Shown here: positions 94 to 47,166 of the stretch, in pieces
Position numbering within the stretch: position 1 is the first letter of the stretch
Layout of the letters: each line of letters begins with the position of its first letter
UHGV virus genome: UHGV-1356548
Origin: a virus
DNA length: 64,000 nucleotides
Reading direction: 5' to 3' (one strand)
Made by a program: the position numbers and the translations under genes
Notes under the pieces: model-generated
Database searches by the model: none
What the model saw: only the letters and a program-made list of their open reading frames with translations
What the model was told of the DNA's origin: nothing

Positions 94-2232
94 TTATTTA
101 CTCAACGGACAACAGTCTACATTCCCAACATGTTTAACACGTTCGATAACCTCTGCTTGTTTACCTGTGTTATACGGCCTACTGTTCGGGCTGGAGAGAT
201 AGCCAGACACTCTTCGGATCACTGAGATATATTGTTCATCGTGGCATCCGCACGCAGGGCAGCAGAACCCTTTAGCTGTTGCACTGAACTCACCAGAGAA
301 ACCACACTTGAGACATTTATCCACAGGTTGGTTAATACCAAAATACATAATGTGTTTATACCCGAAGTCAACAAGAGCCTCTAAAGCATCAAGGTTGTTT
401 TTCAGGTTAGGTGTCTCTACGTATCCGATGTTGCCACCGGAGGAGATCATAGCAAAACCTTCCTCATACTCCCACTTATCAAAAGGAGAGCTATTGATCC
501 ATACTGGCTGATGGAAACTGTTGGTGAGATATTCATGCTCGTGCTTTAACACTTCTGGATATTCACGATCCAGACAGGTTGCAGCTTTATAGCATAGACT
601 CTCAGAAGGAGTGCCGTACAAGCTAAATGCTAGTCTACTTTCCTTCTTGTATCGCTCACAAGCATCTCTCATGTGCTGAAGGATTCCAAGAGCTAAAGCC
701 TTGTCACCTTCTCTGCCCAAAATCTGACAGGTTTCATACACACCAATGTACCCAATGCTGATGGAAGCGTACCCGTCATAGAAGAGTTTATCAATACTTT
801 CTTCAGGATCCAGGCGAGCAAGAGCGCCTTCACACCACATGATGGGGTTCTGCCCTGCCTTTGTTCCTTTTAGACGGTTAACCCTTACAAGGTGAGCCTC
901 GTATGCAAGATCTAAGTATTCGTCAAGAACTGCAAAGAAATCAACACCTTCCGTCTTAGCTTTTGCCGCAATCATTGGCAGGTTAAGGCTAACAACGCCT
1001 AAGTTAAATCTGCCAAGGTATTTCTCCTCGCCTGTTTCCAAGTCATTGTATTTGCTAAGAAAACTCCGGCAACCCATGCTCGTTACTTTGCCATCTGTCG
1101 AGCCTGTCACTTTTCTATTTAGTGGTACAGATACGAAGTCAGGATAGATACGTTCTGCACAGCATTCCAGAGCTAATCGTTTCAAATCATAGTTAGGATC
1201 TCTAGGGCTCATGTTGACACCCTCTTCTAGGAAGAACAGCACTTTAGGGAACACAGGTGTGATCCGTTCTTCACCAAGACCCATTTTGTGGACTTTCAAG
1301 TAATTTTTGGTAATCATTCTACCAAAGACCGAGGTATCCAGTCCTAAACTTAATGTGATGAATGGAGTTTGCCCGTTGACAGAGGTTAACGTATTGATTT
1401 GATAGAGCAAAGTCTGCATGCTGTCAAACACGTCTTTATCTGTCATTTGCATTGCAACGGTCTCAGCATCTGGCAACCAATGTTCCTGGCAAAATTTAAG
1501 GTTCTTCTCATAGGTCGCTTCAGCATACTGTGCCAGATAATGATCAATATGGCTCATAGTCTGACCACCATATTGAGCACTAGCTACCGCACTGGAGATT
1601 TGGCTAAGGATTGTTGTTGCAACCCCTATTGACTTCGGCTTACTGACATGGGCGTTACCAATGTTGAATCCGTTTTCCAGCATATCTGGATAATTTACCA
1701 AACAACAGTTTGTTAACGGACTGATCAAGTAGTCAAGATCATGCACATGGATGAAGCCTTTATTGTGCTCTTCGGAGACACGGTCTGGCAGGATCTGTGT
1801 TGATGCAAGGTGTTTGCTAAGGATGCCTGCAAGCAGGTCACGATGAGTGTGTACATGATTAGTGGGCTTATTTGCGTTTTCTTTTGTAAATTCATCACAA
1901 GTTCGATCCAAGAAGCCACTAATATCTGCAAGCAGTTTTCCACCTGCCTCTCTGTTATTATCTCTTGTCTGTCTATACTGGATGTATTCTCTGGCTGCAC
2001 ATTTTAAACCCATATCCATAAGAGCATCTTCAACAAGGATATGGATATTTTTTACAGAGATCGTGCACTGGTCGGTTGGCAGATTGTTAGCAACAACTTC
2101 ATTAACCGCACAAGCGATCCGGTAAGCTTCTTCTTCAGTATGTCCAGACTCAAGTAAGGCGGACTCTGCCGCCTTGATCACCTTAATTCCGTTATAGAAC
2201 TCTTCTCTACCGTCCCGTTTTACAACTTTCAC
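94..2232 (-). CDS. nrdD: anaerobic ribonucleoside-triphosphate reductase (class III RNR)
   Basis: 712-aa ORF; C-terminal Cys cluster (CLKCG...CPACGC) followed by glycyl-radical motif RRVSGYL; sits in an nrd gene block. Confidence 0.85.
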   Translation of the reverse strand: MKVVKRDGREEFYNGIKVIKAAESALLESGHTEEEAYRIACAVNEVVANNLPTDQCTISVKNIHILVEDALMDMGLKCAAREYIQYRQTRDNNREAGGKLLADISGFLDRTCDEFTKENANKPTNHVHTHRDLLAGILSKHLASTQILPDRVSEEHNKGFIHVHDLDYLISPLTNCCLVNYPDMLENGFNIGNAHVSKPKSIGVATTILSQISSAVASAQYGGQTMSHIDHYLAQYAEATYEKNLKFCQEHWLPDAETVAMQMTDKDVFDSMQTLLYQINTLTSVNGQTPFITLSLGLDTSVFGRMITKNYLKVHKMGLGEERITPVFPKVLFFLEEGVNMSPRDPNYDLKRLALECCAERIYPDFVSVPLNRKVTGSTDGKVTSMGCRSFLSKYNDLETGEEKYLGRFNLGVVSLNLPMIAAKAKTEGVDFFAVLDEYLDLAYEAHLVRVNRLKGTKAGQNPIMWCEGALARLDPEESIDKLFYDGYASISIGYIGVYETCQILGREGDKALALGILQHMRDACERYKKESRLAFSLYGTPSESLCYKAATCLDREYPEVLKHEHEYLTNSFHQPVWINSSPFDKWEYEEGFAMISSGGNIGYVETPNLKNNLDALEALVDFGYKHIMYFGINQPVDKCLKCGFSGEFSATAKGFCCPACGCHDEQYISVIRRVSGYLSSPNSRPYNTGKQAEVIERVKHVGNVDCCPLSK

Positions 2233-2507
2233 TTTTTCTCTCCAAAACCATTCTTAACAAAAGAGATGAAATCGTCGGCACCGCCTATATGGATACTGTC
2301 AAGATCGCTTTCTAAGAAGATCTGCGGCAACGTTCGGGGGACGATTGGACTACACTTCTCAATAAGCTCTTCTTTTGTGTAGCCCTCGCCAAGTGTCTTA
2401 TATACAAAAGGCAGACCTTTGCTGATTGCAAATTCTTTTGCTCTGACACAATGTGGGCAGTTATCCTTACCGTAAATGATGATGAAAAAAGATTTTTCGC
2501 AGCTCAT
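2229..2507 (-). CDS. glutaredoxin-like redoxin (NrdH/Grx-type)
   Basis: 92-aa ORF with N-terminal CPHC active-site motif (IYGKDNCPHCVRAKEF); 4-nt overlap with nrdD start, between nrdB and nrdD. Confidence 0.7.
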   Translation of the reverse strand: MSCEKSFFIIIYGKDNCPHCVRAKEFAISKGLPFVYKTLGEGYTKEELIEKCSPIVPRTLPQIFLESDLDSIHIGGADDFISFVKNGFGEKK

Positions 2508-2510
2508 ATA

Positions 2511-3599
2511 TTAAAACTCCCAAATTTCTTCTTCAGCGTCGTTAACAGTTGTGTTGACGCGGTAGTCAGTGTTCGACATTTCTTGGTTCGCCGTCTGTTG
2601 CAATGAAGGTTTCATCCACACCTGCATAAACGGTAGCGGGTCCTTTGTTGGCGGCACAAAGTCTTTGTCGATGTCGTAGTAATCATAAATCGGTGAGCAG
2701 TTATAGTCAACCCATTCTTTAAGCAACGGTGAGTTAAGACCTATAATCGCTCTTCCTTCGCTGAAAATATAGTCACTCCAACCGTACTCTTTGGTTCGTA
2801 CTTCATCAAGAATCTCTTTTAACTCCCCTTTTATCTCCAGGAAGCTTTTCTCCCATGCGGGATCGTTAAGCAAGATATCAATGATGGCAAAATCACCTTT
2901 CGAATGTAGCATTTCGTCAAGCATGATTTTTTGAACAAGCTGCGCCACCTGAACAAAAATACCCTGTTCAGCTACTGCGAAAGTGCATGCAAAACTTGCA
3001 ATAAACTCAATACTTTCCAGGGCTAAAAGTGCAAAAAGCGCTCTAAGAATGCATTTCCGCACAATATCTTCTTCAACACTAGAAGGATCCAGGCGGTATT
3101 TTGCACCAATAACCTCAAGCTCTTGCATGTATTTGACAATAACGCCGGATCTGCTCAGAACGTTTTGGTTTTCCTGAATCTCTTCTATAATCTCACGGGC
3201 ATTGGGGAGGCATTGTCTAACAATCTCTGAGTAAGTTAGTGCGTGAAGAACTTCAATCTCTGACTGTTTCATCAATAGAGTGAAAAGCTCACTATTAGTG
3301 ATGAATGGTGAAAAGAGGCAGATGATCGATCTTGCCGCAACGCTATCAGCCTCCCATTGCCACATCAAGGTCTGTACCATCACGTCATAAGTTGACTTTG
3401 AGCATGTTACAAAATCTGAAATAGATTGCGACAAATCCACTTCATCCTCTGCCCAATCTTGCTCTTTTTGTTTTTTGTATAGTTCAAACAGTTGTGGATA
3501 TTTTTTGTTGATAGAGTCGTACATACCCATTTGCTGTCCCAGAAACAGCGGATAGTCACCAGTTTTATGAGCGGTGTTCTCAGCATTAAATACAGCCAT
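2511..3599 (-). CDS. nrdB: ribonucleotide reductase small subunit (class Ia beta)
   Basis: Ferritin-like di-iron type sequence (ESIEFIASFA region); start trimmed to ATG at 3597-3599 (MAVFNAEN) with GAGGTAG RBS, because the longer ORF start at 3659 would overlap the nrdA 3' end and the intergenic hairpin. Confidence 0.75.
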   Translation of the reverse strand: MAVFNAENTAHKTGDYPLFLGQQMGMYDSINKKYPQLFELYKKQKEQDWAEDEVDLSQSISDFVTCSKSTYDVMVQTLMWQWEADSVAARSIICLFSPFITNSELFTLLMKQSEIEVLHALTYSEIVRQCLPNAREIIEEIQENQNVLSRSGVIVKYMQELEVIGAKYRLDPSSVEEDIVRKCILRALFALLALESIEFIASFACTFAVAEQGIFVQVAQLVQKIMLDEMLHSKGDFAIIDILLNDPAWEKSFLEIKGELKEILDEVRTKEYGWSDYIFSEGRAIIGLNSPLLKEWVDYNCSPIYDYYDIDKDFVPPTKDPLPFMQVWMKPSLQQTANQEMSNTDYRVNTTVNDAEEEIWEF

Positions 3600-24501: not shown

Positions 24502-24852
24502 TCAGTAGATGTTTTGTTTAATCTCTATTCCAAACTTCTTGAATGAGTCAGCAGCAAGCATAAATTTACGAGCTGCCGATGGATTAGAAGTATGCACGAA
24601 AATAATCACGTTGTCAATAAGTGGTGGCTTTCCGAATACAAGTTTCTCCTCTAGCGCAGAGAAGCAGTCGTACCCTTCAAGCACTTCACCTAGATCATTG
24701 TCAAAATGCCACTCAGAAACGCGCCTGTAGAGCTTTCTATTATCGTTAATAAAATCCATGAACTCAGAAGAGTTCTTCAGCCAAAGAGCATCTTGGATTC
24801 CGTAATTTGACGGATCTCTCAAGTCATCTAGCCACACAATCAACTTCTTCAT
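24502..24852 (-). CDS. hypothetical protein (duplicate of 19841-20191)
   Basis: Identical translation to copy 1. Confidence 0.4.
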   Translation of the reverse strand: MKKLIVWLDDLRDPSNYGIQDALWLKNSSEFMDFINDNRKLYRRVSEWHFDNDLGEVLEGYDCFSALEEKLVFGKPPLIDNVIIFVHTSNPSAARKFMLAADSFKKFGIEIKQNIY

Positions 24853-25784
24853 TGCATATAGTCCTCGTTGTGAAAATAGCAATCAAGTATCTCACGGCGT
24901 TCCTGCTCCAGGAGGCAGTTCCACACATCTTCTGTGTAATTGCTACGAATGAAGTTTACCATGCCATAAAACTCTTCGTCAATACGTTTAAAGATATCAT
25001 CATCCCAAATCTTCCAAGCTTTACCCCTCATTACGGCCTTCCGTGCCAAATAGTATGGAGACTTGATCTTCAGCTGCAGGTCATAAGGGTAGTAAGGCTT
25101 ACGGATCATATACCCTTCGCCCCTTGTTTCTGCAGCTAATTCTTTTGCATAGCTGAACGGGATTTCACGCACAGTGTGAGGACGTTTTGCACCAAGGTAT
25201 TTGGCAATCCCATCTAAAGCTGCTTCTGGTAGCATTATTCCAGAATCATTATATCTGCAACCTATCAAATATGCGCCATGGTCTTCTTGAACAATATGCG
25301 GATCTGAAGGGTGACAAATTTCAAACATGAATGTCATGTTTTCATTGCCCATAACCTTCTTGATAAGATCTAAATTACCACATTGCTCTTGGATGGTTTC
25401 CTTTGCAAGGTTACAATATGGAGAATCAAGAGACCCGGTTGTTGAGAACAATAGGTCACCTTTATGAGATGATACCACACCAAGGAATCCGTTCTTTTTC
25501 TCTACCGCAGTCACAAGCTTATTGTCAGGCAGGTTGGTGGAGTTTTCTCCCAAGTTAAACACTTTTGTGAAGGGCCATGCCACAACATTTCCTTCATTAC
25601 CTACAACAATGCCTCGGCACTCCAGTAAACGAGGGGACAAATGCCATAAATTGTTGTAAAATACTTTTCTAGCATATTTATAGATCTTTAACCCGAGATC
25701 TGGGTAATACCTACTGGTTACAAGACCTTTGTCAACTAGGTCGTCTGCATTAAAATACTTCATCATACGTTCCTCATTTGTCAT
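24849..25784 (-). CDS. RNA ligase-like nucleotidyltransferase (duplicate)
   Basis: Identical translation to 20188-21123. Confidence 0.55.
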   Translation of the reverse strand: MTNEERMMKYFNADDLVDKGLVTSRYYPDLGLKIYKYARKVFYNNLWHLSPRLLECRGIVVGNEGNVVAWPFTKVFNLGENSTNLPDNKLVTAVEKKNGFLGVVSSHKGDLLFSTTGSLDSPYCNLAKETIQEQCGNLDLIKKVMGNENMTFMFEICHPSDPHIVQEDHGAYLIGCRYNDSGIMLPEAALDGIAKYLGAKRPHTVREIPFSYAKELAAETRGEGYMIRKPYYPYDLQLKIKSPYYLARKAVMRGKAWKIWDDDIFKRIDEEFYGMVNFIRSNYTEDVWNCLLEQERREILDCYFHNEDYMQ

Positions 25785-25827
25785 TTTGTCAGTCTATCCT
25801 GCCACACAAATAACCTAGTGTCAACAC

Positions 25828-25856
25828 TTGAAATTAACAAAACAGTCAGGTATACT
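25828..25856 (+). promoter_or_regulatory. sigma70-like promoter of kinase/phosphoesterase operon
   Basis: TTGAAA (25828-25833), 17-bp spacer, TATACT (25851-25856); GGAGGG RBS precedes ATG 25885; direct repeat TTGAAATTAA occurs twice in this region. Confidence 0.5.
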
Positions 25857-25884
25857 ACCGTTGAAATTAAAACGGAGGGTCACT

Positions 25885-26295
25885 ATGTCTAAAATGCTAT
25901 ATATCGTGCGTGGTCTACCAGGGTCTGGCAAATCAACACTGGCAAATGCGCTATCTTTAGAGGGTCTGTATCCACATTTTGAGAACGACATGTTCTGGTA
26001 TGACGATGACGGCAATTACAACTGGGATGCAAGTAAAGTAACACTCGCAGCAAAATGGTGCAAAGATAACGTAGAAGATATGATGCGTATGGGATACGAC
26101 CGTATCGTGGTAAGTAATACGTTTACAAAAGAAAAACATGTGCAGGAATATGTTGACATGGCAATCAGTCATGGGTATAGTTATACCGTGATCGTGGTTG
26201 AAAACCGCCACGGTAATAAAAGCATTCATGATGTTCCAGACAAGGTTGTGGATCGTATGGAACGCCAGCTTAAAAACTGCATTAAACTTAAATGA
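25885..26295 (+). CDS. P-loop polynucleotide 5'-kinase-like protein
   Basis: Walker A RGLPGSGKST at residues 9-18 and overall resemblance to the kinase domain of T4 Pnk; start moved to ATG 25885 (the ORF-track TTG start at 25828 lies in the promoter). Confidence 0.55.
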   Translation: MSKMLYIVRGLPGSGKSTLANALSLEGLYPHFENDMFWYDDDGNYNWDASKVTLAAKWCKDNVEDMMRMGYDRIVVSNTFTKEKHVQEYVDMAISHGYSYTVIVVENRHGNKSIHDVPDKVVDRMERQLKNCIKLK

Positions 26296-26302
26296 GGAAT
26301 GT

Positions 26303-26857
26303 ATGAAATACTTTGTAACAAGCGACACACACTTTCTCCACCAGCGGGTCATGGAGTTTGATTCATGTCAAAAACACAGATCTCAGTATGATCACAATCT
26401 TGACAGTATGAATGCGGGAATCATCGCCAAGTGGAACTCTGTTGTGTCACCTGCAGACACTGTGTTCCACTTGGGAGATATTGCGTGCACTAATGATAAG
26501 AATATCAACAACTTACTTCCAGATATTCTAAATATGTTGAACGGACATATTATTCTTGTTCGTGGCAACCATGACACAAGGACGACTGTCAGAATTATGA
26601 AAGAGTTCGGTCATGAGGTTGTAGATTATTACGAGCTTCGCCACAACAAGAATTTGATCTGTATGAGCCATTACCAGTTTGCAAAGTGGAACAGAAAGCC
26701 TCACGGATCAGTCCAACTGTTCGGTCATGCTCACGGAACCACACAACAGTTGTTTGGCAGGCAGCTTGATGTCGGTTGGGATGTGTGGGGGAGACTCTTA
26801 CCATTAGAAGAGGCATACCGTATTGCAATGAGTTTTGATATTGACAGCAGGGAGTAA
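26303..26857 (+). CDS. calcineurin-like metallophosphoesterase
   Basis: Motifs VTSDTHF (DxH), GDIA (GD), GNHD, GHAH in canonical order; start at ATG 26303 (MKYFVTSDTHF). Confidence 0.7.
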   Translation: MKYFVTSDTHFLHQRVMEFDSCQKHRSQYDHNLDSMNAGIIAKWNSVVSPADTVFHLGDIACTNDKNINNLLPDILNMLNGHIILVRGNHDTRTTVRIMKEFGHEVVDYYELRHNKNLICMSHYQFAKWNRKPHGSVQLFGHAHGTTQQLFGRQLDVGWDVWGRLLPLEEAYRIAMSFDIDSRE

Positions 26858-26870
26858 TCCCTGCTATTTT
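26846..26870 (+). terminator. rho-independent terminator
   Basis: AGCAGGGA-GTAA-TCCCTGCT hairpin (stop codon in loop) followed by ATTTT. Confidence 0.5.
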
Positions 26871-26904
26871 AAAGAAAATTGCCACACAAGGAGAATCAGG
26901 AGAT

Positions 26905-27255
26905 ATGAAAGATGGGGATAAGCTGCTATATCTTAAAGTCCCCCTTGAAATACTATCTATGTCAAAAGTTTTGAATGACACAACTGGGGAGGTTGTTGTT
27001 CTTGACTTGTATGACAAGATCGTATACTGCTACCTGCACAACTGGTATAAGCTTGGAGGAAATTCACGCTTCACACCAAGCACAAGGAAAATTGCAGCAG
27101 ATGTTGGGATAAAGAAAACAAAAGCAGCAGCGTGCGTTAAAACTTTAGAATGTGCAGGAGTGGTTGAAACATCCACACAAGGGAGAGGTAAAAGATGCAC
27201 ATTTTCCAAAGTTTTGCCACCAGAAGAAGTTATTCGGATGTCAACAACTGGTTAG
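26905..27255 (+). CDS. small putative DNA-binding protein (possible winged-helix)
   Basis: 116-aa ORF with AGGAGA RBS; segment PSTRKIAADVGIKKTKAAACVKTLECAGVVE resembles an HTH/winged-helix recognition region; sits directly upstream of the iteron array. Confidence 0.3.
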   Translation: MKDGDKLLYLKVPLEILSMSKVLNDTTGEVVVLDLYDKIVYCYLHNWYKLGGNSRFTPSTRKIAADVGIKKTKAAACVKTLECAGVVETSTQGRGKRCTFSKVLPPEEVIRMSTTG

Positions 27256-27329
27256 ACCAGTAAAAACTTAAATATCTGTACTATAAGGATTCGTATGTTT
27301 TATGTTCGCCATGGAACGGATACTATTAA

Positions 27330-27412
27330 CTGTCCGTGATACGGACACTACTGTCCGTCACGCGGACACATCTGCCCGTAATACGGACACTAGCTGTCCG
27401 TGATACGGACAC
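27330..27412. repeat. iteron array: four 19-bp dyad-symmetric repeats
   Basis: CTGTCCGTGATACGGACAC (27330), CTGTCCGTCACGCGGACAC (27351), CTGCCCGTAATACGGACAC (27372), CTGTCCGTGATACGGACAC (27394); spacing 21/21/22 bp; each has inverted half-sites GTCCG...CGGAC; a degenerate half-site ACGGATAC sits at about 27316. Confidence 0.85.
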
Positions 27413-27916
27413 ATAAAGAATATAACTAAAATAACTAAATAATAAAAAAATAAAAGATCTAGTACTTATGGTACTAAGTACATATACTTAACTTATGTAG
27501 AATATACTAGATCCTAAGTACCATGTTTTAAATTTATTACTTACTATGGGCAGTGTCGGCCCTTCATTGGCACTCGCCTACGAGGGGCGAGATGCCGGGC
27601 CTCTTTGGTGCACACAATAACAGAAGTTCATACATACAGGTCTGTTAACATGTGTGGGAGCGAAGCGATAGCGCAGGCCAAAGGCCGAGCACTGATGTGG
27701 ACCACCGACGAAAGCTTGCCAGCGCCGTAAGGAGTCGGTTGAGAGTCTCCCGCGCGAGCTTGGATGAAGTTTATGTGTGGAAACTGACAAGAAGGCCCCT
27801 AAATCGCTCCACAGCTATATAAACTATACCAGGTAATGCAATCGCACCAGTTTGATAGAAAAGCTCGTTACAAAGCGATACAGTTAGTTTTTCTATAACT
27901 TGAAGAGGAGGCAGCT

Positions 27917-28495
27917 ATGGGTTCACGCAAAGATGACCGTGAAAAGATTGCAAAACGTTATCAGAATGAAGAACAGATGGAGAAAACTTTCAAGTGGAAG
28001 CCCGGTTTCCAGCGTAATCATTCTAACGCTCGTGATCGTAAGCATCCGGATAAGTGGCTAACACCGCCAAATGATGGCATGCAGGTTGGGGATGAGAAGG
28101 AGATGTCGCCTGGAAAAGATGGCAACTACATTCGCACTAAGGACGCTGGTCCAAAGGATGACAGCTATCTTGTAGATAAGGTTCTTGATGGTATCAATGT
28201 AGATGTTGACACTGCACGAAACCTTTTTCTTGGGTGGTATCGCACAGGTTTTTTCGACATCAAGGCTATTCGTCGTGTTTGTGATATTAAAAAGTCTGCA
28301 TATGATGACGACTCGTTACATCGCACCCTGAGACAATATTCAGAAAGATATGGTCATCCGGTTATCACTCTTGACGATGTTAACGAAGTGATGTATCATG
28401 CAGAGGTTGTTGCAGGAAGATTTGGTGATGCATATCTTGATATCCTTTCTGCAAAGGATGAGGTAATGTTAAATAAGATTTACTATGAACGCTGA
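27917..28495 (+). CDS. hypothetical protein
   Basis: 192-aa ORF with GAGGAGG RBS. Confidence 0.4.
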   Translation: MGSRKDDREKIAKRYQNEEQMEKTFKWKPGFQRNHSNARDRKHPDKWLTPPNDGMQVGDEKEMSPGKDGNYIRTKDAGPKDDSYLVDKVLDGINVDVDTARNLFLGWYRTGFFDIKAIRRVCDIKKSAYDDDSLHRTLRQYSERYGHPVITLDDVNEVMYHAEVVAGRFGDAYLDILSAKDEVMLNKIYYER

Positions 28496-29792: not shown

Positions 29793-29867
29793 GCCCTGTT
29801 AGCTTAGTGGATAAAGCAGCGGCCTTCTAAGCCGTTGACACTGGTTCGAGTCCAGTACGGGGTGCCA
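29793..29867 (+). tRNA. tRNA-Arg (anticodon UCU)
   Basis: Cloverleaf by hand: acceptor GCCCTGT/ACGGGGT, D-arm GCTT...AAGC, anticodon loop CTTCTAA, T-loop TTCGAGT, encoded CCA. Confidence 0.75.
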
Positions 29868-29871
29868 AATT

Positions 29872-29958
29872 GGGGAGTTATCCCGTAGGGGTAGCGGTGT
29901 AGACTGTAAATCTATTGTCATTGCGACTCGGGTGGTTCGACTCCACCACTCCCCACCA
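29872..29958 (+). tRNA. tRNA-Tyr (anticodon GUA), class II
   Basis: Acceptor GGGGAGT/ACTCCCC, anticodon loop CTGTAAA, long variable arm resembling E. coli tRNA-Tyr, T-loop TTCGACT, encoded CCA. Confidence 0.8.
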
Positions 29959-30072
29959 AATTTATAGTTTTAAATGCATAAATCATACAGATAATGGCAT
30001 TGATATTTATCGTCGTTTATACTAGTCACTAACTGCTCGAAAATCAGTGTCATTATCAGTATTGTTTATAAA

Positions 30073-30163
30073 TGAGGGTAGGGAGCAATGGTGCTCAAGC
30101 GGTCTTGAAAACCGTCCCGTTGAGGATGACTTGATGATGGTTCGATTCCATTACCCTCAGCCA
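30073..30163 (+). tRNA. tRNA-Ser (anticodon UGA), class II
   Basis: Acceptor TGAGGGT/ACCCTCA, anticodon arm GCGGT-CTTGAAA-ACCGT, long variable arm, T-loop TTCGATT, encoded CCA; 5' boundary +/-1 nt. Confidence 0.7.
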
Positions 30164-30260
30164 TATTGTTGACCTTGTAATTAAGCGAAAGCCGGAAGCA
30201 GAACCGGATTATCAAATGTTACAGTCGTCATCGCCGACTAGCAACATGGTCAACATACTG

Positions 30261-30359
30261 AGCTAGGTAAGCCCTTTGGCAAGGGCGAGGATTTTTAATC
30301 CTGAAAATAGACGAGGTAGTCGTTGAATACATAGGTGGTTCGATTCCATCACCTAGCAC
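30261..30359 (+). tRNA. atypical tRNA-like gene, Lys-type anticodon loop (UUU), oversized variable region
   Basis: Perfect 7-bp acceptor GCTAGGT/ACCTAGC, D-arm GCCC-TTTGGCAA-GGGC, anticodon arm AGGA-TTTTTAA-TCCT, T-arm GGTGG-TTCGATT-CCATC, but 32 nt (with its own GACGA-GGTAG-TCGTT hairpin) between anticodon and T arms; 3' end is CCT not CCA. Confidence 0.4.
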
Positions 30360-30364
30360 CTTTT

Positions 30365-30440
30365 TGCTGATGTAGCACAATTGGTAGTGCAATTGATTTG
30401 TAATCAATAGGTTGCAGGTTCAAGTCCTGCCATCAGCACC
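30365..30440 (+). tRNA. tRNA-Thr (anticodon UGU)
   Basis: Acceptor GCTGATG/CATCAGC, anticodon arm ATTGA-TTTGTAA-TCAAT, T-loop TTCAAGT, encoded CCA. Confidence 0.85.
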
Positions 30441-30441
30441 A

Positions 30442-30516
30442 TGGCCCTGTAGCTGGAAGGTTCAAGCAAGCGACTCATAATCGCCAGACGGTGGTTCAAT
30501 TCCACCCAGGGCCACC
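30442..30516 (+). tRNA. tRNA-Met (anticodon CAU; elongator or Ile-lysidine type)
   Basis: Acceptor GGCCCTG/CAGGGCC with G1-C72 pair, anticodon arm GCGA-CTCATAA-TCGC, T-loop TTCAATT, encoded CCA. Confidence 0.8.
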
Positions 30517-30527
30517 AAATAATAAAT

Positions 30528-30604
30528 ACTCCGCGTAGCTCAGCTTGGTAGAGCGCCTGATTTGGGATCAGGAGGTCGAGTGTTCGAATCACTCCGTGGA
30601 GACC
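30528..30604 (+). tRNA. tRNA-Pro (anticodon UGG)
   Basis: Acceptor CTCCGCG/CGTGGAG with the C1-G72 pair typical of bacterial tRNA-Pro, D-arm GCTC...GAGC, anticodon arm CCTGA-TTTGGGA-TCAGG, T-loop TTCGAAT, encoded CCA. Confidence 0.85.
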
Positions 30605-30650
30605 ACTTTCAGTTATACTTTAAACATATACAAACAAAAGGAACCTTTAA

Positions 30651-39505: not shown

Positions 39506-39964
39506 ATGCTAAAGGTTAAATGTCAAACAAGGTTCAACCTAAAGCGTTTAGATAGCTTCTACAAAGAACTTGTGAGACTTGAAAGTAAAACAATAACCTA
39601 CGGCTTTTATGATGAACCTCACCCGTCAGGCTTAAATATGGCAACATTGGCAGCCATTCACAACTTCGGTTGGAACGGGCTGCCTGTTCGCAATTTCATG
39701 GAGACAGCCTTTGCATTTCACAGCACTCAACTACAGACCTTGACAGAAAAATTGTTGAGAGCTATGGCTAGAGGATCAAGTGCAGAGGCTATTCTTAAGC
39801 AGATGGGGGACACAGGGGCCAAAGCTATCCAGTTTGTTATTGAGGCTGGGCAGTTTAGTAATCCTACTGTTAGCGAGCAGTGGGCACAAGAGAAAGGCTT
39901 CAACGAGGCTATGCGGCATTACGATGTGCTGCTTGAATCTGCAACCTTTAAAATCGGACAGTAA
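39506..39964 (+). CDS. hypothetical protein (head-tail region)
   Basis: Start at ATG 39506 with GAGGG RBS. Confidence 0.35.
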   Translation: MLKVKCQTRFNLKRLDSFYKELVRLESKTITYGFYDEPHPSGLNMATLAAIHNFGWNGLPVRNFMETAFAFHSTQLQTLTEKLLRAMARGSSAEAILKQMGDTGAKAIQFVIEAGQFSNPTVSEQWAQEKGFNEAMRHYDVLLESATFKIGQ

Positions 39965-43840: not shown

Positions 43841-46177
43841 ATGGCTACAAACAAAATAGTTGCCACAACAGTCAACAAGATTGGCTTTGAGATAGAGAAC
43901 TCCTCCTACAAAAAAGCTGTAGAGAAAATTCGCAGTATTGGGAGGGAGTTCAGGAAACTGGGCGAAGATTTTAACTCAGCCAACCCCATGAGCAGATGGC
44001 AGGCGGTAGCTGTTAAAACCCAGCAGACAATGCAGCGGGTTGCCAGACAGCAATCTCAGGCAAATGCTAAACTGCACAGAGAGAGCGTAGCACAGGCCAA
44101 GAAAGAGGCTGCAGTAAGGGCTGCAATAGAACGTAGGGAGAATGCGAGACGTAAACAAGCTGTAGGTAATCTTACCGCTAAAAATCCAGAAATGGCTAGG
44201 ATGCGTAAGTTCTACCAGCAGCAAGCTAAAGAGGCCAAAAAGGCTGCCAAATCTGCACCAGTGTCTTACGGTGGTTATAAGGCACCTAAGGCAAGAGTTT
44301 TGGCTAATGCCAAATCTTTCAAATATATCCCCGGTAACCCTAATATGGGTGGTGTGGCTTCCGACCCTAACCTTGTGAAAGCTCAGACAGCCGCTATGAA
44401 TCGTTATCATAGACAGCTAAGAAGAGACAGTAAAGCTGGTATGGATAATAAGCTTATGTCGGATCGTGAGGCAAGGAGAACCCACCTCTACAACTCCGCG
44501 ATAAGACTTTCTGCCAAGTATGGGGCCGGATTCCGTGGAAGCTTACCAGGATACTCAGAGTTAGAGTCCAGGTTTGCTCGCGGGGAGATGAAGAAGTCAA
44601 CCTTTAACGCCCACCTGTCAGCGCTGCAGTCTGGGTTTAAAAGCGCCACCAGCCAAACGCTTACACTAGGCGATGCCATGAGAGACTTACGTAGATCTGT
44701 TATTAATGCAACAGCTGCGTATACGGCTTTTTCTGGATTTGCTGCGGTTAACAGATCCGGTCACATGATGGAGGGGGCAAGTGCTGCTCTTACTGCTGTT
44801 ACTGGAGATCCAAACAAAGCCAACAGTGAGGTTGCGTTTGTCCAGCAAGAGGCTATGCGTCTTGGTTTTGATCTCAAATCTGGTCTTCAAGGTTACGCCC
44901 AGATGTCGGTAAACGCCAAAAACCAGATGACAAATCAGGAAGTGCATGAGCTGTTTTCTGCATACTCACAGTATGCTGCTGCTTATGGTGCCGATGAGGT
45001 AAAATACCAGCGCGGTATTATGGCTATCCAACAGATGCTTGGCAAGGGACAAGTAATGTCCGAAGAACTGAAGCAACAACTTGCTGAAGCATTGCCCGGT
45101 GCATACGAACCTTTTATCAAGGCCACCAAAGAGGCTTTTGGTCTTTCTGAACTCTCCATGGATCAGTTCATGGACATGATGAAGAAAGGTGAGGTTAAAA
45201 CAGCCAAGATCATGAAGTATGTGGCTAAGTACATGAACGAGGCATCTGCAGCTGGTTATGAAAGAATGCAGAAGTCTAACGTGCTGGCAGAAAACAGACT
45301 GAAAACCTTCATCGAACTGACTCGTCAGAAACTGTTCACCCGTTGGTCCGACGAACTAACAGAGTTCTATTATACACTAATCCGCACTGGTGAGACTCTG
45401 CAATTTGTGTGGGATGCCTCTGGTGATTTTGTTAGCGGGTTTGTGAGAGGCCTTAACTGGGTAGTTGGTGAACTAAACAACACCATAGTCAAGATCCGCA
45501 TGTTTTTCCTTGAATGGGGGATTAAATGGGGATTCATAACAGCTAAGACGAAGGAATATTCTGAAGAGCTTCATGACACCTTTAGCTATGCTAAATGGGC
45601 AGGGTTTGCTGCTGCCATCATGCTGGTAGTCAATGCCCTAACAAAAGGTTTTGTCATGGCATCCATGCTTGTAAAAACCTTTAAATTCCTTAACTCTCTA
45701 AGGGGTGCAGCCGGAGCAGCGGGTGCCGCTACTACAGAAGGATCTGGTGGTGGAGCTCCGGCAGGAAAAGGTGGGGGTGGCCTCAAGACACCTGGTGGCA
45801 AAGTTGGTCTGCTCGGTAAGCTGGGCATTATCGGTACAATACTAAGCGCCGGGGAATTATTTAATGACCGTTACAACCCACTAAGTGAAAGAAATCAGCA
45901 GCTGGACACTATCAGCGATATGATTCGCAAAGATATCATATCGGGAGGTAACGGGTTTGTTAATCCTTTGGACACCTTACCGGGCGGGACTCTTCCGTTG
46001 CCGGGTGGCCCTGGTTTTGCTTCTCAATTAAGAACTATGGAAATGCTACCTTTAGAGATCAGTGATGGGAAAATCACGATTTCAATAGATGAGGGTGAGT
46101 TTAACAAAATATTTGATGCAAAACTTGAGTGGGAGAACAATAAAGATATCAACTTCATGTCTACCGACCTTTGGTAA
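43841..46177 (+). CDS. tail tape measure protein
   Basis: 778-aa ORF, extended helical/Ala-Lys-rich N-terminal half, Gly-rich hydrophobic segment (GGGAPAGKGGGGLKTPGGKVGLLGKLGIIGTILSAG); directly follows the chaperone pair. Confidence 0.75.
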   Translation: MATNKIVATTVNKIGFEIENSSYKKAVEKIRSIGREFRKLGEDFNSANPMSRWQAVAVKTQQTMQRVARQQSQANAKLHRESVAQAKKEAAVRAAIERRENARRKQAVGNLTAKNPEMARMRKFYQQQAKEAKKAAKSAPVSYGGYKAPKARVLANAKSFKYIPGNPNMGGVASDPNLVKAQTAAMNRYHRQLRRDSKAGMDNKLMSDREARRTHLYNSAIRLSAKYGAGFRGSLPGYSELESRFARGEMKKSTFNAHLSALQSGFKSATSQTLTLGDAMRDLRRSVINATAAYTAFSGFAAVNRSGHMMEGASAALTAVTGDPNKANSEVAFVQQEAMRLGFDLKSGLQGYAQMSVNAKNQMTNQEVHELFSAYSQYAAAYGADEVKYQRGIMAIQQMLGKGQVMSEELKQQLAEALPGAYEPFIKATKEAFGLSELSMDQFMDMMKKGEVKTAKIMKYVAKYMNEASAAGYERMQKSNVLAENRLKTFIELTRQKLFTRWSDELTEFYYTLIRTGETLQFVWDASGDFVSGFVRGLNWVVGELNNTIVKIRMFFLEWGIKWGFITAKTKEYSEELHDTFSYAKWAGFAAAIMLVVNALTKGFVMASMLVKTFKFLNSLRGAAGAAGAATTEGSGGGAPAGKGGGGLKTPGGKVGLLGKLGIIGTILSAGELFNDRYNPLSERNQQLDTISDMIRKDIISGGNGFVNPLDTLPGGTLPLPGGPGFASQLRTMEMLPLEISDGKITISIDEGEFNKIFDAKLEWENNKDINFMSTDLW

Positions 46178-46281: not shown

Positions 46282-47166
46282 ATGCCAAGCAATATAGTTG
46301 ATGAAAAAGACCTGTACAAGCCTCAAGAGGTTAAATCTCCAAAGGCTGAAAAGGCAGAGCAGCAAACTGAAAGCGATGTAAAGTATACTATGTTTGTCAG
46401 CGGTCTTAACTATGGTGGTCGCAATACGGAGATGAAGGGTAAAAACTTTACTAACGATCTTGCCATTATCTTCGATCAGGTTGAGAATTACTCTTTCAAA
46501 CATTCTGTTGATAAGACTGGGTTTGCGGTGGAAGATAAATCTACCCTGTCAGACCACGCTGTAATTAAAGATGGTGTATTTTCTTTTACTGGCAGGGTAA
46601 ATACATCTCCACATATAATCTATGAGCAAAACTACATTGACAGGAATACTGACTCTAAAAACCCTGCAGCATCTATGCGACCGGGCGCTGCACTGGAGGC
46701 TTTGACTGAGATCATTAATAAGCGCCAGTTGGTTTCTTTGGTTACCGAGGAGAGACTTCTTGAGAACTACATCATAACCAGTCTTTCTGCCAACAAGTCT
46801 GTTGGTGAAGGCGCTGCAATGGTGTTTGATGTAGAACTTACAGAGTTCCGCACATTCTACTTGAATAAGGTTGTTAATGCAACTGTATACAGCAATCCTA
46901 AGAAAGTAGGCAAGACCCAACAAAAAGGCGCTGTCAACGACTGTAAGAATGGTAGTAACGTAGGTAACAAGAGGGACACAGGAGCATTCGCAGACACTGC
47001 ATCCACAAACGCTGCAGAGGAGTGGCAGCCATACAAATCTATGATGTGGACAGATGAAAACGGTGTTACCCAATCGGCTGCGGATTGGTATTATCAGGAA
47101 TATGGAAGACCTTCTACCATAGTCCCATCTGAGCAGGGAAACTACAACAAAGTTAACGGGAAATAA
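46282..47166 (+). CDS. hypothetical tail protein
   Basis: 294-aa ORF first after the tape measure. Confidence 0.35.
   Translation: MPSNIVDEKDLYKPQEVKSPKAEKAEQQTESDVKYTMFVSGLNYGGRNTEMKGKNFTNDLAIIFDQVENYSFKHSVDKTGFAVEDKSTLSDHAVIKDGVFSFTGRVNTSPHIIYEQNYIDRNTDSKNPAASMRPGAALEALTEIINKRQLVSLVTEERLLENYIITSLSANKSVGEGAAMVFDVELTEFRTFYLNKVVNATVYSNPKKVGKTQQKGAVNDCKNGSNVGNKRDTGAFADTASTNAAEEWQPYKSMMWTDENGVTQSAADWYYQEYGRPSTIVPSEQGNYNKVNGK

Follow-up and report, generated by a model that had tools for sequence, protein, structure and literature searches.

Anatomy of the locus

The 64,000-nucleotide stretch of the virus genome UHGV-1356548 analysed here (the window) contains, at positions 27256-27916, a non-coding region of 661 bp that includes a candidate replication origin. 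The region lies between two genes of the plus strand: on its left, a gene for a small winged-helix protein of 116 amino acids (26905-27255), the homologue of gp075 of phage rV5 and a candidate origin-binding initiator, and on its right, starting at the edge of the region, a gene for a 192-residue protein whose function is not known (27917-28495; rV5 gp073 homologue, PHROG 12226). From left to right it consists of a spacer (27256-27326), an array of four dyad-symmetric repeats, or iterons (27329-27412), an AT-rich tract that is a candidate DNA-unwinding element (27413-27545) and a GC-rich non-coding element (27546-27830). The 1.1 kb around the locus is 100% identical to Escherichia phage I29 (ON286975) and 90-99.7% identical to 118 further records, almost all of them labelled Vequintavirus or rV5-like; judged by this identity, the window is that of a Vequintavirus. 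A window position p converts to 91124 - p in I29, and the 137,044-bp I29 genome, rebuilt from the window and two fetched pieces, served for the genome-wide scans. Phages of the rV5 type are widely isolated and are used for the biocontrol of E. coli O157 and in phage-therapy cocktails, and to our knowledge their replication origin has never been located.

The array was recovered by a repeat search as a 22-nt unit present four times, at 27327, 27348, 27369 and 27391, with spacings of 21, 21 and 22 bp (about two helical turns), and by Tandem Repeats Finder as 4.0 copies of period 21 at 27329-27412, the strongest tandem array of the 64 kb. The repeats measure 17-19 bp, and each copy holds a 17-bp dyad, TGTCCGT-N3-ACGGACA, the cores of which lie at 27331-27347 and 27395-27411 (TGTCCGTGATACGGACA in both), 27352-27368 (TGTCCGTCACGCGGACA) and 27373-27389 (TGCCCGTAATACGGACA). 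When the pattern TGTCCGTNNNNCGGACA was searched with up to two mismatches, the window gave 11 strand matches against 0.66 expected, a number reached by none of 100 shuffles; with up to one mismatch, every match to the dyad pattern in the 137-kb I29 genome fell inside the array. Several GenBank records annotate these repeats merely as 'repeat_region'. The array begins 72 bp past the stop codon of the small gene (27255), and the spacer before it falls into two parts: in an intergenic alignment of nine relatives, with variable sites counted per segment, 12% of the positions vary in the first 49 bp, which are conserved, versus 73% in the last 22 bp (27305-27326), which are hypervariable.

The AT-rich tract starts directly after the last repeat. 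It comprises 133 bp with 19.5% GC, in which GATC is present twice and the unit ATAACTAAA about four times, along with short inverted repeats such as 27468-27478 with 27514-27524. Duplex stability was calculated as nearest-neighbour stacking energy over segments of 60, 100 and 130 bp, and at each of these lengths the least stable stretch of the window lies in this tract (z 4.9-6.1), which is also the least stable duplex of the whole 137-kb genome (z 6.05, the runner-up having z 4.5). A scan for sigma-70-type promoters and for terminators predicted neither in 27256-27916, and neither kind of signal is listed within the non-coding region in the rV5 promoter table (Table S4; PMC3606486). Candidate -10 and -35 boxes picked by eye in the region are weak and not conserved across lineages, and a DnaA box with an 8/9 match at about 27774-27783 was dropped because it is not conserved in Aya.

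An earlier reading of this DNA, made from the letters alone (hereafter the sequence-only reading), had proposed four dyad-symmetric repeats spaced at 21/21/22 bp, followed by AT-rich DNA with short inverted repeats and preceded by a gene for a small winged-helix protein. The repeats are borne out by the repeat search, Tandem Repeats Finder and the shuffle test; the AT-rich DNA is found as described, with inverted repeats as given above; and the gene is confirmed as an open reading frame for 116 amino acids, whose product has the expected fold according to Pfam, an AlphaFold model and Foldseek. Its span for the whole feature, 27256-27540, stands in part: array and AT tract are real, and 27256-27326 is spacer only, hypervariable over its last 22 bp.

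The small winged-helix protein

The gene at 26905-27255 is preceded by a sigma-70-type promoter on the plus strand (26841-26870; TTGACA-18-TATTTT, 10/12), annotated as P76 in RefSeq rV5 and the only promoter-like match in 26700-28100. This promoter would give early expression by the host RNA polymerase, together with transcription into the repeat region. Its spacer holds a perfect 7-bp dyad (GCAGGGA...TCCCTGC), the stem of which is kept and the loop of which differs in L064, a divergent relative treated below; the dyad could act as an operator or a regulatory hairpin, or could terminate transcription of the upstream gene. Differences between the window and Aya in 26905-27255 fall 7/8/28 over the three codon positions, mostly on the third, as expected for a coding gene.

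Naming of the gene in public records is inconsistent, GenBank entries giving 'putative transcriptional regulator', 'DNA-binding protein' or 'hypothetical protein' and RefSeq giving 'replication initiation protein'. Among PHROG families, the product matches phrog_12838, 'replication initiation protein', at E 5e-80, with weaker matches to the N-terminal parts of the larger initiator families 8102, 428 and 270. Pfam matches are near-threshold only (DUF6945 at 27.4 bits with a cut-off of 28, HTH_36 at 24.5 with a cut-off of 25). The gp075 family is tiny: five clusters at 90% identity were found in 5.8 billion proteins and eight matches in 1.84 billion representatives, and when gp075 and gp073 were compared by tblastn with 50,697 phage records, no homologue turned up beyond the genus. 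Three remote homologues (P0008, P0009 and P0011) strongly match PHROG families of initiators, 'O-like' proteins and DnaD-like loaders, with E down to 1.8e-27; two of them, P0009 and P0011, sit on contigs of 1.7-1.8 kb, and their gene context is uninformative. In P0009 and P0011, and in an initiator-like protein of the episomes described below (L057 10592-11503, minus strand), the C terminus is an acidic tail that finishes with APF or IPY. Such tails are reminiscent of the partner-binding tips of SSB and T7 gp2.5, and the window protein has none.

Structure prediction depended on the depth of the alignment. AlphaFold run on a five-sequence alignment gave an unusable model, with a predicted local distance difference test score (pLDDT) of 45; after two remote homologues were added, pLDDT rose to 78.8, with a predicted template-modelling score of 0.75. 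The model is a winged helix of b-b-H-H-H-b-b-H topology. The protein ends about 15 residues past the wing and is a single domain with no C-terminal domain. Its best relative in the PDB is 4RO3, by sequence (phmmer E 3e-6) as by fold (Foldseek template-modelling (TM) score 0.65, 28% identity). The next Foldseek matches are staphylococcal RepA_N initiators (4PQL, 5KBJ, 4PT7 and 4PTA; TM about 0.54), of which 5KBJ is a Rep-DNA complex; phmmer similarity to these proteins is at noise level (E about 0.8). With 4RO3 as its best match by sequence and fold, and RepA_N initiators next by fold, the small protein is best described as a putative stand-alone origin-binding domain of the RepA_N/PLE-RepA-like kind.

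Conservation and exchange of the repeats and the protein

A search for the repeats in related phages, which the sequence-only reading had offered as a check, found the array in all 119 matching relatives. In the nine aligned relatives, the half-sites TGTCCG/CGGACA are invariant, and variation in the array is confined to the repeat centres and to the positions between repeats. The AT tract is likewise constrained, with 8% of its positions variable versus 73% in the 22 bp just 5' of the array. Copy number is not fixed: the repeats are present twice in navn, three times in nomo and FFH2, four times in most relatives and six times in O157 typing phage 14, always in register. Invariant half-sites with variable centres and spacers fit the conservation pattern of protein recognition.

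A more divergent locus is found in L064 (IMG/VR 3300010279_000001, 137 kb; 1960-2770, minus strand), which keeps the metallophosphatase gene, the promoter (a conserved TTGACA...TATACT at the equivalent place), the GC-rich element and the gp073 homologue. Its small protein, of 143 amino acids, is 28% identical to the window protein (E 7e-7) and matches the same initiator PHROG families. Its repeats differ, being dyads of GATACATATTTGYATCAGAT, and so does its A-rich tract. On this comparison, L064 has exchanged its protein, repeats and AT tract jointly, in a cognate-module swap; exchange as a block is behaviour that fits a cognate initiator-origin module. The lineage, to which L366 also belongs and which is Vequintavirus-like, is absent from 50,697 isolated phage records.

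Wider searches of sequence collections were mostly uninformative. Scans of IMG/VR with 14-mers and 17-mers returned almost solely chance matches, and 18-mer scans of genome and metagenome contigs returned about 200 loci, mostly in high-GC genomes and almost all by chance. After BLAST filtering, loci of the Vequintavirus type (L308, L372 and L374), the divergent L064 and L366, and the episome loci L301 and L321 were left. Three high-GC (61-66%) phage contigs that are related to one another (L036 2685-2795, L041 2065-2170 and L051 11945-12055) have five repeats of TGTCCG(T/C)CTCCCGGACA at 22-25-bp spacing, with the same half-sites as the window array but in the classic arrangement, within the gene of a lambda-O-like initiator. 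In BLASTP the window protein and the O-like initiator of L041 show no significant similarity (E 0.67), and no likeness between them is detectable beyond the fold; convergence of unrelated phages on the same half-sites is a possible reading of this sharing, which is suggestive only.

A probably structured element next to the AT tract and its occurrence in E. coli episomes

The 250 bp with the highest GC content in the window (56%) directly follow the AT tract. The element to which they belong (27546-27830, plus strand; 285 bp, 54% GC) comprises a 5' hairpin domain (27555-27603) and a core (27651-27756), is conserved in relatives and, although part of the same 661-bp non-coding region, extends beyond the span of the sequence-only reading. 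Homologues were found in L056 (1000-1310), L058 (1438-1540), L064 (1605-1953, minus strand), L301 and L321, and in every case, in rV5-like phages as in episomes, the element lies downstream of an iteron array and an AT-rich tract. Rfam gave nothing relevant for phage or episome copies, at gathering thresholds or at E up to 10, its rli43 and mir matches being due to chance. Two open reading frames that some records annotate within the element, 27652-27822 (plus strand, rV5 gp074) and 27578-27790 (minus strand), were rejected as genes, because their variable sites are spread evenly over the codon positions (10/8/10 and 12/10/8) and their replacements relative to L064 are nearly all non-synonymous.

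Base pairing in the element is suggested by covariation. The stem 27704-27709/27734-27739 is ACCGAC/GUCGGU in the phages and GCUGCC/GGCAGC in the episomes, with a G-U intermediate in two phage lineages; it is fully paired in 11 distinct sequences, three of its six pairs having changed on both sides, versus 0-50% pairing in slid controls. The stem encloses a 24-nt loop, GAAAGCUUGCCAGCGCCGKAAGGA, that is otherwise invariant, and two further compensatory pairs occur in the 5' hairpin (27569-27596). The G-U pairs favour the plus strand. Single-sequence folding of 27546-27860 is not significant (z -1.25 and -1.02 on the two strands), so that the case for structure is one of covariation; because this covariation comes from two or three independent lineages, the structure is supported and not fully defined. 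Its probable form is that of a structured RNA (or of single-stranded DNA) with plus-strand sense, and it may be linked to the origin.

Pieces of the element with 84-87% identity also occur in circular E. coli 'plasmids' of about 13 kb and in two metagenome contigs. The records concerned are NZ_CP020521.1 (L057; 13,689 bp, circular), NZ_CP043822 (39.6 kb, an apparent trimer), NZ_CP178698, NZ_CP035869 and CP148565, with the metagenome episome L301 measuring 13,895 bp. Upstream of the element, the episomes have an iteron array made up of seven dyads of the ACCCCGGTAAATATTTCCG type, some of them spaced by 23 bp, followed by AT-rich repeated palindromes; downstream of it they encode a 303-aa protein with weak matches to O-like initiators. 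A 7-mer, TAACTAA, is the sole motif common to the three origin regions and was judged to be due to chance. Other products of the episomes are a major head protein, a tape measure protein of 706 aa, a neck or tail-completion protein and a PHROG 5197 protein, and three of the episome proteins are 38-54% identical to the products of window genes 39593-39934, 44183-45136 and 46411-46968. No recognisable terminase, portal or polymerase was found among the episome genes, and no paper on these episomes was found in the literature. From their gene content, the episomes may be satellites or mini-phages of rV5-like phages.

A candidate replication origin and its alternatives

The array lies about 1.5 kb inside a rightward transcription unit that starts at a divergent point near 25.8 kb, where the genes change strand, a minus-strand block (Sir2-like, RNA-ligase-like and other genes) lying to the left and a plus-strand block to the right. 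The tRNA cluster (29793-30605) and the late structural genes follow downstream, in the same orientation as the locus. The sequence-only reading had placed it at the boundary between early and late gene blocks, which is roughly right: the array is within an early-type segment, and the boundary can be taken only as approximate because, in the rV5 table, sigma-70 promoters occur across this 9-kb stretch and 'late' promoters begin only further downstream (Table S4; PMC3606486). The phage has replication genes of its own, a gp4-like primase-helicase (I29_207) and a family-A polymerase (I29_206).

The locus is interpreted as the initiator-dependent (theta-type) replication origin of this Vequintavirus, or as one of its origins, an interpretation that we regard as fairly probable. 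From the anatomy of the region, the uniqueness of the array in the genome, its pattern of conservation, the homology of the small protein to iteron-binding initiators and the joint replacement of protein and repeats, we infer binding, unwinding and replisome loading in the following order. The 116-aa winged-helix protein would be produced early from its own sigma-70 promoter, and its dimers would bind the four TGTCCGT-N3-ACGGACA dyads, all on one face of the DNA because the repeats are two helical turns apart. The bound dimers would form a nucleoprotein complex resembling an O-some, which would strain the adjoining 133-bp AT tract. With negative supercoiling, and perhaps aided by rightward transcription from P76, the tract would open, and the T7-gp4-like primase-helicase and family-A polymerase of the phage would then load.

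Several observations weigh against this interpretation. The cumulative GC skew of the whole genome has its minimum at I29 65264, or about 25860 in the window, and its nearness to the array counts in favour of an origin; however, it coincides with the switch in transcription direction at about 25.8 kb, where the sign of the skew flips, and is 1.5 kb off the array. The authors of the rV5 genome paper sought an origin by skew and assigned none because every skew switch coincides with a change in transcription direction, and they ascribed the skew changes to transcription (PMC3606486). The Pfam matches of the small protein fall just below threshold, and neither RepA_N (PF06970) nor Phage_rep_O matches it at E up to 1. 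Winged helices are generic, and regulators of the MarR, CodY and SlyA type are found further down the list of fold matches; 'transcriptional regulator' is, moreover, the label of the gene in many GenBank records. The protein has no domain known to recruit a helicase or loader, which leaves replisome recruitment unexplained. Large lytic phages may also initiate replication from transcripts or recombination intermediates. Lastly, an AT-rich non-coding region of 2.3 kb outside the window could be an alternative or additional origin. This stretch (I29 104042-106371; L388 13043-15372) has no annotated genes, lies at a strand switch and near a local maximum of cumulative GC skew, and ranks second in the genome for duplex instability (z 4.5 at 105.7 kb); besides a second origin, a terminus is conceivable there.

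The sequence-only reading had left the choice between an iteron-type origin and a cooperative operator array. As an operator array, the four dyads would be bound cooperatively by a winged-helix transcription factor that represses or activates a promoter in the AT tract, or blocks read-through from P76, and that would control the structured RNA, gp073, the tRNA cluster and perhaps entry into late-gene expression. Helically phased dyad sites are typical of dimeric repressors too, the fold search lists MarR, SlyA, CodY and ArsR, Pfam gives weak matches to HTH_CodY, LexA and TrmB, many depositors chose the name 'putative transcriptional regulator', and the array does lie upstream of a 500-bp conserved non-coding stretch and co-oriented genes. 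However, the regulator families are all under their Pfam cut-offs (E 0.008-0.2), and the closest relatives of the protein by sequence and fold are initiators, not regulators. There is no sigma-70-like promoter or terminator in 27256-27916, by prediction or in the rV5 table, and the 137 kb hold a single binding locus, with none at the protein's own promoter. Regulation alone would also leave unaccounted for the extreme instability of the AT tract and the fact that L064 has exchanged this tract along with protein and repeats. An operator array in place of an origin is therefore considered unlikely. The two functions may coexist, and the locus could have a regulatory role alongside that of an origin; between the two proposals of the sequence-only reading, the origin is favoured by the initiator homology, the single motif locus, the AT tract, the lack of a predicted sigma-70 promoter or terminator inside the region and the block swap in L064.

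The repeats might instead be a packaging (pac) site for a winged helix resembling a small terminase, or a partition (centromere-like) site, since small terminases and centromere-binding proteins also put winged-helix or helix-turn-helix domains on tandem repeats. The assembly MG065672 starts exactly at the array, as a pac site might suggest, but this start is probably an assembler break at a repeat, because other assemblies of the same length are unbroken there. Neither a terminase gene nor one of the ParA/ParM type adjoins the locus, partition would be of no use to a strictly lytic phage, the relatives of the protein are initiators, and the repeats are missing from the candidate satellite episomes, with which the phage should share any pac site. 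Both possibilities are regarded as very improbable. A functionless minisatellite, produced by slippage or duplication and of drifting copy number, is scarcely credible. The range of two to six copies among close relatives would speak for it, but against it stand the half-sites, invariant while the adjacent 22 bp are 73% variable, the presence of an array in all matching relatives, the dyad symmetry and helical phasing retained in every copy-number variant, and the different array at the same place beside a different protein allele in L064.

If the locus is an origin, a broader hypothesis can be formulated, to which we give little weight at present. Iterons, AT tract and structured element would together form one tripartite origin, in which initiator and iterons are swappable specificity modules and the element is the constant part, which the Vequintavirus replisome recognises, for instance because it supplies a primer, forms an R-loop or serves to load the helicase-primase. 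The 13.7-kb episomes that encode capsid and tape measure proteins would then be satellites of rV5-like phages that captured the constant part beside their own initiator and iterons and so hijack helper replication.

Neighbouring genes and related records

A set of genes of the RNA-repair type occupies 24849-26857, immediately left of the candidate origin and at a distance of 3 kb from the tRNA cluster. It consists of an Rnl1-like RNA ligase (24849-25784, minus strand), a P-loop kinase of the polynucleotide-kinase type (25828-26295) and a metallophosphoesterase (26198-26857). On the other side, a tRNA-like gene of 97-99 nt (30262-30360, plus strand) is assigned a four-base anticodon (atcc) by ARAGORN and reaches only 35.5 bits with the Rfam tRNA model; other records label it tRNA-Lys(TTT) or 'tRNA-OTHER'.

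Some of the records that match the locus have unexpected labels. Eighteen are 'Campylobacter phage' records that match at high identity (93.9-99.2% at the DNA level among those listed), and CP057073.1, a 137.6-kb 'E. coli plasmid', is 97% identical over a query of 601 bp taken around the locus; this record probably represents the genome of an rV5-like phage. The Campylobacter and plasmid labels may reflect mislabelled hosts, contamination or a carrier state.

Significance and comparison with known systems

A defined pair of origin and initiator, if the interpretation is correct, would allow origin-based engineering of rV5-like phages in the form of replicons, reporters and conditional mutants. 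It would also provide a compact model of an initiator that consists of a DNA-binding domain only and hands an opened origin to a phage-encoded, T7-like replisome; how an initiator hands over to the replisome is a question that has also been raised for PLE RepA (PMC7145576). The structured element and the episomes, if real, would represent a new helper-satellite system in E. coli.

Among characterised systems, the closest by protein structure is that of PLE, a satellite of Vibrio cholerae: 4RO3, the solved structure nearest to the window protein, comprises the N-terminal domain of its initiator, PLE RepA (Barth et al., NAR 2019, PMC7145576). PLE RepA binds iterons at the PLE origin in electrophoretic mobility-shift assays, by means of its N-terminal winged-helix dimer, and drives replication of the satellite, only with the replisome of the lytic phage ICP1 and not with that of the host; it was placed in the RepA_N family by structure only, and RepA_N and PLE origins have semi-palindromic iterons (PMC7145576). 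The two systems have in common a winged-helix domain and semi-palindromic direct repeats in non-coding DNA, at the origin in PLE and at the candidate origin here. They differ in that PLE RepA has a C-terminal domain, whereas the 116-aa window protein corresponds to the N-terminal domain alone and has no Pfam RepA_N match, and in that PLE is a satellite, whereas here the gene belongs to the lytic phage itself; the iteron sequences are unrelated. The staphylococcal RepA_N initiators (pSK41, pTZ2162) similarly share the N-terminal iteron-binding fold (TM about 0.54) and semi-palindromic iterons, but they belong to plasmids, possess a C-terminal domain that is host-specific and have their origin inside the rep gene.

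In phage lambda, the iterons of the origin are bound by a dimer of the N-terminal domain of O, and transcription through the region activates the origin. Lambdoid origins have four to six iterons (the range in Stx phages), each a 19-bp imperfect inverted repeat, and two iterons with the AT tract suffice for unwinding (PMC7466680). The window locus has the same order of parts, four imperfect inverted repeats of about 19 bp and then an AT-rich tract as candidate unwinding element, and the two to six copies found among relatives correspond to the range that is functional in lambdoid phages. Unlike the lambda origin, which is inside the O gene, the array here is 72 bp downstream of the stop codon; unlike O, which has a C-terminal domain that recruits P-DnaB, the window protein is a single domain with no Pfam Phage_rep_O match; and unlike lambda, this phage encodes its own primase-helicase and polymerase. 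Regulators of the MarR, GntR and CodY type resemble the small protein in their winged-helix fold, small size and binding as dimers to palindromic sites, but they rank lower in the fold search and remain below Pfam thresholds, and here no sigma-70-like promoter is predicted over the sites, which occupy a single locus per genome.

Taken as an origin, the locus is in kind a familiar one, iterons beside an unwinding element, closest to those of PLE RepA and the RepA_N initiators and to oriLambda. What is unusual is that the candidate initiator is a DNA-binding domain only, that the origin lies outside its gene and that a conserved, probably structured element adjoins it.

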